This document shows positions 1 through 11,936 of a stretch of DNA of 44,084 bases, piece by piece. The notes beneath the pieces are model-generated. The model searched no databases, was not told the origin of the DNA, and saw nothing but the letters and a program-made list of their open reading frames with translations. The number at the start of each line of letters is the position of its first letter. The first letter of the stretch is position 1. Origin of the DNA: Reclinomonas americana ATCC 50394 (lineage: Eukaryota); NCBI GenBank assembly GCA_048213135.1, contig PS015082.1:224466-268549 (forward strand). The letters are read 5' to 3'. A program made the translations under genes and the position numbers.

Positions 1-1152
1 CAGGCGGCTGGTATCAGTGCGGATGAGATTGCGCCAAGCAGCCATGCCGATCCTTCTGCCTCGGCATCGTCGGCAAGCAGTGAGCCGACGGCTGTTGGCG
101 ATGCTAATGCGGCACCGCGCGGTGAGGTGTCGATTGCGGCGGTGGAGGTGGCTGGTGGTCAGATGATGGACGTGCTGGCGCCACCACCACCGCAGTCGGA
201 TCAGTCGCCACCGGCCGAGCAGGCGGTGGAGTTGGTGGTCACGGATCCGGATTCACGGCGACCGCTGCAGTACCCGCCGCGCCATCTGCGACCGCGTGCA
301 CCCGCCGGTAAGTACGAGCATCTGATGGCGCTGACGCCCAACATGGACATGGTCAGCGACCACGATCGTCGCAACTACTCCATCTGTGCTCGCCAGTTGC
401 ACTTGGCCATGGTGGAGGCCGAGTGGGCCACGATCCCCTCGGAGGAGGAGGTGGTGGAGAATCTGTGTCGCATTCAGTGCAACCATTTTGGTGCGTGTAT
501 TGTAGAAGAGTGTGTGTGCATGTGTGTGCAAGCATCTTACTCTTATGTGTCAGATCTGGAGGACGACGATGAGGAGTCGTATGCCGAGGCGCTGTATACG
601 TACATTAGTATGATGAATCACTCGTGCGAGCCGAATGGCGAGGTGGAGATCGAGGTGTGTGTGACCCTGCTTATCCACTGATATTGGAAGACGTTGTGCT
701 GATCTCTCTCTTGTGCGTGTAGAATGGATACATTATTCGCCTGGTGGCCCTCAAGGACATTGAGGTCGGCGACGAGGTCAACATCTCCTACGTCGACACC
801 TCGTGGACTCTCTTTTCGCGCCAGAAGCACTTGCGGCGATTCCACTTGTTCGACTGTATGGTAAGCAGTATGTGCGGGTGGGCATGCGCACGCTTGGGAG
901 CATCTTGATTCTGACCGACCCCGTTCTCGTGCGCCGCTGCAGTGCTCGCGGTGCGTCCGCGAGACGGCGGAGGAGGAGTCGAATGCGCGCGCTCGCCGTG
1001 AGCGAGAAGAGTCGGGAGCTGCGGATCCGGCAGATCCGGCTGAGGACGACGACGAAGAGGAGGAGGAAGAGGAGGATGCCAACGAGGAGAACGAAGATGC
1101 CGAGGGAACCGATGGTGGCGAGGGCGACGACGAAGAAGCCGACGAGGAGTAG
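1..1152 (+). CDS. SMYD-like SET-domain lysine methyltransferase, 5'-truncated, with acidic C-terminal tail
   Basis: Introns 491-553, 655-722 and 861-942 give ...CRIQCNHFDL..ALYTYISMMNHSCEPN..IRLVALKDIEVGDEVNISYVD..FDCMCSRC (SET motifs NHSCxPN and GDEVxISY, post-SET CxCxxC). A D/E-rich tail follows, with TAG at 1150-1152. Confidence 0.88.
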
Positions 1153-2058: not shown

Positions 2059-3615
2059 ATGAGCTTGGAAGTGTCGCCGTTTGAGGTCCGCGCATGCTAT
2101 GCTGTGCTGTATGTGTGCACTCGCCCACTGCCTTCTTCACAGGTGACGCAGATCAGTGCATCGCCGCGCTTTGAGAATGTGTATGCAGTGGCGTCGTTTG
2201 AGTTTGGCAGCTGGTACCACGGCGGTCGTGTGACACTGGTCAAGCATGCAGAGAAGAGTGATGATGATGATGATGATGATGATGCAACGGGCACTGTGAC
2301 AGTGGTGGCCGAGCTGGAGAACGGCACCGGTGTGCATGATGTGGTGTGGTCAGAGCAGTTTCCCAGCGTCTTGGCCACGGCCAACTACAATGCAAGTTGA
2401 GCGACAAAGAGAGAGGAGGTCTTGCTTCTCCTTGCTTCGTTGCTGATGATGGATGCAGCAATGTCACTGTGGAATGCAAATCGCGGCAAGAAGCTGGCAG
2501 TGTGTCATGCACATCATGCGCCGGTGTTGTCGGTCTCGTGGAACCAGCTGGCGTCGCAGCATGTGCTGACGGCGTCGGAGTCGTCGCGTGCCAAGTTGTT
2601 TGATGTCAACAGTTTCGTGTGTGGGGCGCGCTGCTCGTTTTCTTGCTCTGCGCCGTGCACGTGACTCGGGTACACGCAGATCTCGAGTATGTCATCAGCG
2701 TGTTTGGCGAGCACACCAAGGCCGTGCGCTGTGTACGGTGCGTGCTGCGTGCCAGTCGGCGTCTGTGCTGCAGGTTGCTGCTCACCACGGTCTCAGGTGG
2801 AACGACAACAACACGGACGAGTTTGCGACGGTGTCGGATGACGCGCTGTTGAAAGTGTGGGATCGCCGCATCGATGAAAGCGTGTCGACGTTCTTTGATC
2901 GGGAGAGCACGGCCCCGCTGCGTTCGTGCGACTGGAACAAGCGTGATGTTTCGTTCCTTTTTCACTTTTATTGTGTGCGTTGTGTTTCCCTCTTGTTGAC
3001 ATGCTGATGTGCAGGACTGGCTCATTGCTGTGGCTGCCGATGACGGCTGTGTGAAGATATGGGACACTCGCAACACGCTGCAGCCGGTGGCATCGCGCGC
3101 TGCGCATCGTCACGCCGTGCAGGCGGTGCGTTTTGACACACGCGAGCCCGGACTGCTGGCTTCGGCATCGGCCGACCACACCATGCGTGTGTGGGACACC
3201 AGCACAGGTGCAGTCGCTGCATTTCACCTGCTCGACAGCGCGCGCACTGCGCCTGACTTCGTTTGACCCCGTAGGTGGCATCTATCTCACCCACGAACAT
3301 CGACTGCATTCGATGTCAGTGCGCGCACTGGAGTGGTCGTTGCATTCGTCGCGTGCCATCGTCATCTCCGGCTCGGCCGATGGCAAGGCTCTGTGGACAC
3401 CACTGAATCGTGCAGTGCATGTGCAAGAGTGGCACGATGATGCGGGCGACTTGGTGGTATGTGTGTGTGTGTGGCGTGGGCCTTCTTCTGGTGACCAGTC
3501 CGTCGCTCACCTCCTCTTTTGATGATTGTGCCAGGTGAAAAAGCGCCTGCCAGCACGCCGCCGTGAGAGCATGCACACGACCTCGTTTCCCGCCACCTTC
3601 GACGCCAAACTGTAG
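2059..3615 (+). CDS. PEX7: PEX7-like WD40 protein (PTS2-receptor family, divergent)
   Basis: Seven GT-AG introns (donors 2086, 2396, 2612, 2739, 2948, 3208, 3457). Blocks SPRFENVYAVAS, DVVWSE..VLATAN, LRSCDWNKRDDWLIAVAADDGCVKIWDTRN and HRHAVQAVRF..LLASASADHTMRVWD follow PEX7 blades in order. Ends FDAKL-TAG. Confidence 0.8.
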
Positions 3616-10962: not shown

Positions 10963-11013
10963 GGAGAAGACGATCAATTGTCAATCGACCGACTTTGTGA
11001 GTGGACGTAAACG

Positions 11014-11936
11014 ATGGCGTGGGCAAGCAGAGCAGTCAACTCGCTGTGCGCAGCGCCCTTGCTGCTGCGCCGCTCCTTTGCCACGGCCTCTGCTGGTGCA
11101 CAAAACAGAGCGAGTCATGGCGCGCGCGATCTCTCACTCACTCTCACTCTCATGCACACACAGACGGCTTTGCGGCGGTGCGCAGTGCGCTGGAGGCCGA
11201 GTCGTCGCCACGCGTGTCGTGGGCGCGCTTCCAGGAGCTCTGTGCCTCGGCCAAGACGCCTGCGTCGGCGGTGGAGGTGGCGGAGAAGTTGCAGGCGGAG
11301 GGCGCGGTGGTGTTGGGACGCGGAGGCCTGGAGAGACACCTCGAGCAGTCGGTGTTTGTCAAGCCGGCGGCGGTGGTGGCCGCGCTCAATGACGCGCTGG
11401 ATGTGTCGGGCGAGAATCGCAAGGCGAGTCTCTCTCAAACACACACTCACCGCGCTCATCGGCTCTTTTGTGCTCATCGCGACTGTGCGCAACAGAGTCG
11501 CCTGCGTGAGGTGGAGAACAACCTGGTGACGTGGAAGAAGGAGGTGGCGGAGTTGAACGCGGCCAAGCAGAAGCTCGATGTGCAGGCGTTGGCCTCGGCC
11601 AATCGCACCATCAATGCGGGTCTGGCGTTCCTCGTGGCGCAGACCTCGTATCTCTTCTACCTCACCTACGACGTGTACGCGTGGGATGTGACGGAGCCGA
11701 TCTGCTTCTTTGCCAGTTCCATCACCGTCTTCACCGGCTACTTTTACTACTTGACCACGCGACAGGAGTACACGCACGACTCGATGCGGACGACGCTCTT
11801 CTTCCGCCGTCGCGACAAGCTGTACAAGCGTACGGGCTTTGACCTGTCGCACTATGAGGAGCTGCTGGAGCGCATTCATGCCGGCGAGACCGAGGTTCAA
11901 CGACTTCGCATGCTGCTGGGATTGCCCGCCAAGTAA
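11014..11936 (+). CDS. MCU: Mitochondrial calcium uniporter (plant/protist-type N-terminus)
   Basis: Presequence-like MAWASRAVNSLCAAPLLLRRSFATA; VSWARFQELC..GAVVLG..VFVKP; coiled coil; TM1-WDVTEP-TM2-YYLTTRQEY; GFDLSHYEEL. Intron 1 ends at 11163 (donor 11096 or 11114); intron 2 is 11424-11495. Confidence 0.92.

Follow-up and report, generated by a model that had tools for sequence, protein, structure and literature searches.

The gene at 2059–3615 (+) of our window, a stretch of 44,084 nucleotides of the Reclinomonas americana genome, almost certainly encodes Gcp1 (Gsp-co-occurring protein 1), to judge from its sequence. We put the probability at roughly one half that this protein is a PEX5-imported peroxisomal scaffold of a T2SS-derived system and not a PTS2 receptor, and that the canonical PEX7 imports the Gsp proteins bearing a PTS2-type motif. 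The gene itself is known, as the Gcp1 sequence, its family and its PTS1 were published in 2021. Horvathova et al. (PMC8134430) described Gcp1 in jakobids, malawimonads, heteroloboseans and hemimastigotes, reported Gcp1–3 as the WD40 paralogues closest to Pex7, and predicted a PTS1 on most Gcp1 proteins. Comparisons with this paper refer throughout to the portions of its text and supplements covered here. The published Gcp1 and the present gene share the kinship with PEX7, the PTS1, and the co-occurrence with PEX7, Gcp2, Gcp3 and the Gsp genes; in the sections covered, the published account leaves the lost glutamates and the kept Glu80 unanalysed. The initial annotation of this DNA had suggested a rewired import route. 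As something new or species-specific this does not hold, because the protein is Gcp1, known across four lineages with its PTS1 already predicted.

The gene has eight exons with GT-AG introns of 57–78 nt and gives an open 365-aa WD40 protein. By eye, this model is identical to the row labelled Reclinomonas americana in Supplementary Data 1 (PMC8134430). Its features are as follows.

2059..2085 (+): exon 1 with the start codon, in agreement with the published Gcp1 row
2143..2395 (+): exon 2, blades 1–2; the published sequence starts it at 2143
2260..2283 (+): eight consecutive aspartates; the loop behind blade 1 that holds them is variable and differs in length between orthologues
2353..2355 (+): codon of Glu80, the kept equivalent of the PEX7 bottom-face glutamate, from the alignment
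2459..2611 (+): exon 3; its donor at 2612 agrees with the published sequence
2521–2523 (+): exon 3, codon of Pro115, in place of the first cargo-binding glutamate, from the alignment
2680..2737 (+): exon 4, from the gene model
2797..2947 (+): exon 5, from the gene model
2915–2917 (+): exon 5, codon of Pro204, in place of the second cargo-binding glutamate, from the alignment
3015..3207 (+): exon 6, WD40 repeats (Pfam WD40, E 4.6e-09)
3275..3456 (+): exon 7, which opens the C-terminal extension of the family, from the gene model and alignment
3313–3315 (+): exon 7, codon of Met292, in place of the third glutamate, from the alignment
3457..3534 (+): last intron, with GT-AG ends and a length of 78 nt that keeps the frame but brings in stops, predicted from the sequence
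3535..3615 (+): exon 8, which closes the conserved extension and adds a flexible tail, the PTS1 and the stop, from sequence and alignment
3604–3612 (+): PTS1 Ala-Lys-Leu, with the stop extending to 3615, from the sequence

An alternative in-frame acceptor is possible for exon 2, which would then start at 2152. This intron-1 acceptor, at 2151, would have given the first intron position in common with PEX7; it was dropped, because the published sequence uses 2142. Under the published Gcp1 model, Gcp1 and PEX7 have no intron position in common.

To place the protein, exon 2 alone was searched against 1.84 billion representative proteins, which gave nine matches at E ≤ 0.001. Five matches with one or two matched stretches were examined, four long multi-repeat proteins being left out. 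All five proved to be family members, three of them full-length, and one is named Gsp-co-occurring protein 1, from Malawimonas jakobiformis (QRZ58750.1; 46% identity, E 5e-101). The R. americana protein shows 37–46% identity to Gcp1 family members versus 22–31% to PEX7s. With phmmer, Gcp1 scored 82–117 bits against full-length PEX7s and 69 bits against RBBP4. Other searches added little: word-based searches of proteins, made with exons 5 and 6, turned up no orthologue, a metagenome scan for Gcp1 gave only three unrelated WD40 loci, an Atlas search with exons 1–2 gave no usable family, and PDB sequence searches with single Gcp1 exons returned generic WD40 matches or none.

A PEX7 phylogeny had been proposed as a check, and it was run with 13 rows. 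The Gcp1 clade, with the R. americana protein inside it, had a support of 100/99. The PEX7 rows formed their own clade (97/97), with R. americana Gcp1 outside. The Gcp1 clade may be the sister of PEX7 (82/73 with a single outgroup). A larger published tree suggests that the Gcp1 group is sister to PEX7 (PMC8134430). The separate clade, together with a canonical PEX7 in the same genome, bears out the earlier reading of the gene as a repurposed PEX7 paralogue with a PTS1 of its own.

This canonical PEX7 had been named as a thing to look for. Our pattern search of the genome found it as a near-identical pair, with all three glutamates kept and without a PTS1 end. Five similar proteins were aligned, one of them annotated as a PTS2 receptor, and the best PDB match of their alignment was yeast Pex7 (3W15). 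A genome search with full-length PEX7 gave 243 generic WD40 matches, among which more PEX7-like genes could hide; long WD40-repeat ORFs with few introns make up a large family in this genome. Many loci of this genome occur as near-identical pairs, and Gcp1 was seen once, on contig C74.

Beside Gcp1 and PEX7, the genome carries Gcp2, Gcp3, GspE and GspEN2A. The R. americana Gcp2 and Gcp3 models match the published rows by eye. Like Gcp1, both are PEX7-related propellers with the same phylogenetic profile; unlike Gcp1, they have no PTS1 in R. americana. Gcp3 also differs from Gcp1 in having no Glu80 equivalent and in keeping an acidic residue and an aromatic one at the third glutamate site of PEX7, a pair found by eye in all eight published Gcp3 rows. 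The R. americana Gcp3 gene (contig C319) has a GC-AG intron.

A PEX5-like gene pair (contigs C326 and C1464) was found by a loose pattern and identified as PEX5-like by its TPR motif. The gene is partly unreadable; its readable part showed no clear WxxxF motif and no N-terminal cysteine, and a search by the TPR exon found no second gene copy. Copies of a peroxisomal-looking thiolase, presumably of the peroxisomal type, run off their contigs ahead of the N-terminus. Two megabase contigs of the assembly (C1 and C2), whose thiolase genes have no introns, have a bacterial look.

The fold was predicted for the orthologue QRZ58750.1, with PEX7 rows in its alignment. The model had a pLDDT of 89; the C-terminal part adds two strands to the propeller, and residues 344–360 form a disordered tail. 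Its top Foldseek match was yeast Pex7 (3W15), with RBBP4/7 narrowly behind. PEX7, both as 3W15 and as the R. americana copy, is like Gcp1 a collinear seven-blade propeller, and R. americana PEX7 and Gcp1 are 26% identical over the whole length. Gcp1 is unlike PEX7 in that its cargo-face residues are replaced, a C-terminal hairpin, a tail and a PTS1 are added, and it forms a separate clade.

The replacement includes three columns of the alignment, which we take to be human E113, E200 and E287. These residues of PEX7 are implicated in binding PTS2 cargo or the co-receptor. Among six canonical PEX7s, the first and third columns are always Glu (6/6 each), and the second is Glu in 5/6, the remaining one being Asp. 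When R. americana Gcp1 was aligned with them, it had Pro115, Pro204 and Met292, and the earlier claim that the PTS2-binding glutamates are replaced in this protein is thereby confirmed. By eye, the equivalents of E113 and E200 are absent from all nine published Gcp1 rows; the loss of the third glutamate does not extend to the whole family (Glu in 2/9 and Asp in 2/9). The PEX7-invariant blade-1 loop and aromatic top-face positions are also replaced in Gcp1. Four Gcp1 sequences share 69 invariant columns, 23 of them common to PEX7 including Glu80, and the invariant top-loop residues peculiar to Gcp1 include Trp33, His35, Asn69 and Asn90. Since its top face has been replaced, Gcp1 is probably not a PTS2 receptor.

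We suggest that PEX7 was duplicated long ago, that one copy retained the propeller of seven blades and swapped the whole PTS2-binding top face for conserved residues of its own, and that the ancestor of Gcp1 gained a C-terminal hairpin and a flexible tail ending in a PTS1. Gcp1 would then be carried into peroxisomes as PEX5 cargo. Inside the peroxisome, or where import takes place, it may serve the Gsp/Gcp (T2SS-derived) machinery as a scaffold or adaptor. GspE, EL, EN2A, EN2B, F and G, which make up the motor, platform and pilins, would reach the peroxisome via PTS2-type helices and the canonical PEX7. The initial annotation had offered two options, a matrix WD40 protein that enters as PEX5 cargo and a receptor for some other signal. 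From the sequences, the former appears to fit better, and the latter would have a candidate ligand in the Gsp helices.

These helices were recognised in the published Gsp rows. By eye, the N-terminal region of 52 of 55 rows contains the nonapeptide R-[LIVMAT]-x-x-[LIV]-x-x-[HQ]-[LIVMF], a figure to be read with the facts that this relaxed pattern was fitted after the rows were seen and that the rows come from related, non-independent species. The rows were those of parts 1, 2 and 4–7 of the 12 parts of Supplementary Data 1 (PMC8134430); further GspG rows are in part 3. Among the rows covered, the nonapeptide occurs in GspE (8/8), GspEL (10/10), GspEN2A (10/10), GspEN2B (8/10), GspF (8/8) and GspG (8/9), and in none of the 12 rows of the secretin GspD. 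As background, the relaxed pattern without Met at position 2 was found in 21 of 499 ORF starts (first 100 residues) and in 0 of 40 proteins. The classical PTS2 consensus, (R/K)(L/V/I)x5(H/Q)(L/A) (PMC3178647), was taken as published and matches 27 of the 55 rows. In R. americana, GspE (contigs C292 and C300) and GspEN2A (contigs C526 and C540) have the relaxed nonapeptide only, with Met and Ile at position 9, and the published GspG row is without it. In N. gruberi, acyl-CoA oxidase-like proteins listed on the peroxisomal sheet also have this motif at their start.

No report of PTS2 signals on Gsp proteins was found in the literature searched, with subscription journals and supplementary PDFs largely outside the search. 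In the portions covered, PTS2 is named once in the main text of PMC8134430, as the cargo signal of PEX7, and there is no mention of it in those of PMC10128026 or PMC7050145. Of the 13 GspDN2 rows in Supplementary Data 1 of PMC8134430, 10 have a PTS1 score, and the GspDN2 rows show a near-miss to PTS2, with Phe at position 5, within the folded domain. In N. gruberi, the start of Gcp6 is of the PTS2 type, and Gcp13 ends in SKL.

The question is then which propeller reads the Gsp motif. The Arg and the His/Gln of a PTS2 are read by the acidic pockets of PEX7. The Gsp motif keeps both, that is, the positions read by the glutamates that Gcp1 lacks, and PEX7 would thus be the natural reader. It is rather unlikely that Gcp1, alone or with Gcp2 and Gcp3, is instead a dedicated receptor, whose rebuilt top face binds the variant Gsp helices and whose own PTS1 rides PEX5 in place of the PEX7-binding box. 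In favour of such a receptor, the three PEX7 paralogues share one phylogenetic profile with six or more Gsp proteins that bear the motif, 25 of 52 Gsp motifs differ from the classical consensus (in residue 2 or 9), and Gcp1 has invariant top-loop residues of its own and keeps Glu80. However, the Gsp motifs retain Arg and His/Gln, yet the two acids are missing from all nine Gcp1 rows. Moreover, neither Gcp2 nor Gcp3 of R. americana has a Glu at the first cargo-binding site, and a PTS1 provides entry with no obvious recycling.

The reading of Gcp1 as a resident scaffold, with PEX7 as importer, would place the machine in peroxisomes. The published Naegleria gradient bears on this. Twenty Gsp/Gcp rows of Supplementary Data 2 (PMC8134430) were taken; Gcp3 and Gcp12 were not found under those names. 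Fourteen of the 20 rows were detected only in the densest fraction, and Gcp1 was detected in 4/4 dense replicates and 0/10 lighter ones. Missing values of the proteome were imputed before clustering, and NgGcp1 was placed in the mitochondrial cluster (PMC8134430). Imputed values underlie the 'mitochondrial' assignment of Gcp1, whose own gradient data do not decide.

The log2 step from OPT-1520 to OPT-2030 (OPT-2030 minus OPT-1520) was 1.7–1.9 for four mitochondrial markers, 2.9–4.4 for six peroxisomal markers, and 2.65–5.0 for the six system proteins that have a middle-fraction value. In a rank test, these six proteins gave p = 0.01 against the mitochondrial markers and p = 0.31 against the peroxisomal ones, with markers that are few and hand-picked and with two of the six system-protein steps resting on one value. 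GspG1 (3.22) and GspF (2.65) are among them, though both are filed as mitochondrial. PMP34 (2.63) is likewise on the sheet taken as mitochondrial, and the authors note cluster leakage (PMC8134430). All six measurable system proteins thus behave like peroxisomal markers in the Naegleria gradient, a reading that we did not find in the literature searched.

The published model holds that the machine is mitochondrial and exports a matured protein, which Gcp1–3 pick up at the surface of the mitochondrion and bring to peroxisomes. The Gsp N-termini would then be mitochondrial presequences that resemble PTS2. This hypothesis is set out in PMC8134430 and in a 2023 review (PMC10128026), and it has microscopy, fractionation and heterologous targeting on its side. 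Antibodies to NgGspG1 and NgGspEN2A showed co-fractionation and co-staining with mitochondria, GspD, E and G1 fusions were found in yeast mitochondria, GspD was imported into yeast mitochondria, and the T. brucei mitochondrion received both tested GspG proteins and the first 160 residues of NgGspG1 (PMC8134430). T. brucei is a host with a PTS2 route. In the microscopy section of the paper, MitoTracker is named and no peroxisomal marker is. The N-terminal signals of different organelles can be structurally alike (PMC4585086). However, presequences have no consensus according to the same source, yet Arg1, Leu/Ile/Val5, His/Gln8 and a hydrophobic residue at position 9 recur in the 52 of 55 Gsp rows at a variable distance from the start. 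The 14 of 20 rows detected only in the densest fraction and imputed before clustering, the filing of PMP34, and the six system proteins that sit with the peroxisomal markers, GspG1 and GspF included, also speak against this model, and we consider it quite unlikely.

For the system as a whole, we propose only tentatively, at somewhat less than even odds, that the T2SS-derived machine of jakobids, malawimonads, heteroloboseans and hemimastigotes is largely peroxisomal. Its ATPase module, platform and pilins would enter by PTS2, Gcp1, GspDN2 and Gcp13 by PTS1, and the three PEX7 paralogues would be resident adaptors. The odds are kept at this level because the published mitochondrial microscopy and targeting data are real. 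The PTS2-type motif on Gsp proteins and the re-reading of the gradient could explain why three PEX7 paralogues travel with the system. The system has been presented as a remnant of the early mitochondrion, and the motif on six subunit families, together with the gradient, offers a cheap and direct test of a peroxisomal function. The published sequences of the parts of the machine appear to carry overlooked peroxisome import signals, which calls its mitochondrial location into question. If the machine is peroxisomal, a bacterial secretion apparatus would have been redirected to this organelle early in the history of eukaryotes.

The import of Gcp1 itself would depend on its C-terminus. The last exon (3535–3615) does read as first described and ends in Ala-Lys-Leu and a stop at 3604–3615. 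If the intron 3457–3534 were retained, or the sole earlier acceptor (3498) were used, the protein would end without AKL. We favour the spliced form over retention or acceptor 3498, as Lys342 and Pro345 in exon 8, invariant in four of four full-length family members, continue the motif opened in exon 7, and as the curated published Reclinomonas americana Gcp1 sequence has the same 3457–3534 splice. A PTS1 is predicted in eight of the nine published Gcp1 rows, from four lineages and with six different tripeptides, and the R. americana protein has a predictor score of 5.35 in the published table (PMC8134430). By composition, about 0.25% of proteins would end in a PTS1-type tripeptide by chance, and such an end is seen in none of six PEX7s, one of which is truncated. 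It is very improbable that AKL is non-functional in R. americana, through a weak context or another last splice, and that the protein is cytosolic: an earlier acceptor or intron retention would remove AKL, one orthologue has no PTS1 and Asp precedes the R. americana tripeptide, yet exon 8 encodes invariant family residues and the signal recurs across the lineages.

While the cargo face was rebuilt, one residue of the opposite face was kept. Glu80, in a Trp-Ser-Glu loop, is invariant in six PEX7 and four Gcp1 sequences and is kept, by eye, in eight of the nine published rows. It presumably corresponds to E77 of human PEX7. In the portion of PMC12339391 covered, E77 is required for PEX39 and PEX13 to bind the bottom face through their (R/K)PWE motifs, and not for the binding of PEX5 or cargo. 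The kept Glu80 may therefore let Gcp1 still touch the (R/K)PWE motifs of PEX13 or PEX39. The genome has a PEX39-type KPWE domain above the Pfam cut-off (positions 1483–1656 of a locus on contig C133), with Asn where the Lys/Arg of the motif belongs and an Arg two residues earlier. A search for PEX13 in the genome by the pattern PKPWE gave two unrelated matches only. A complex prediction of M. jakobiformis Gcp1 with the R. americana KPWE domain scored 0.00 with a poorly folded partner and is evidence neither way. The rebuilt cargo face, set against the kept docking-face glutamate, points to the surfaces of Gcp1 that are worth mutating.

In the neighbourhood of Gcp1, an ORF at 1305–1880 (−) lies head to head with it, the two starts being 178 bases apart; this ORF had no Pfam match and no Atlas match at ≥ 0.9. 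The region 1–1152 (+) is the 3′ part of a SET-domain gene (a weak match, E 0.005), and 11001–11936 (+) is a mitochondrial calcium uniporter gene (E 3e-38).
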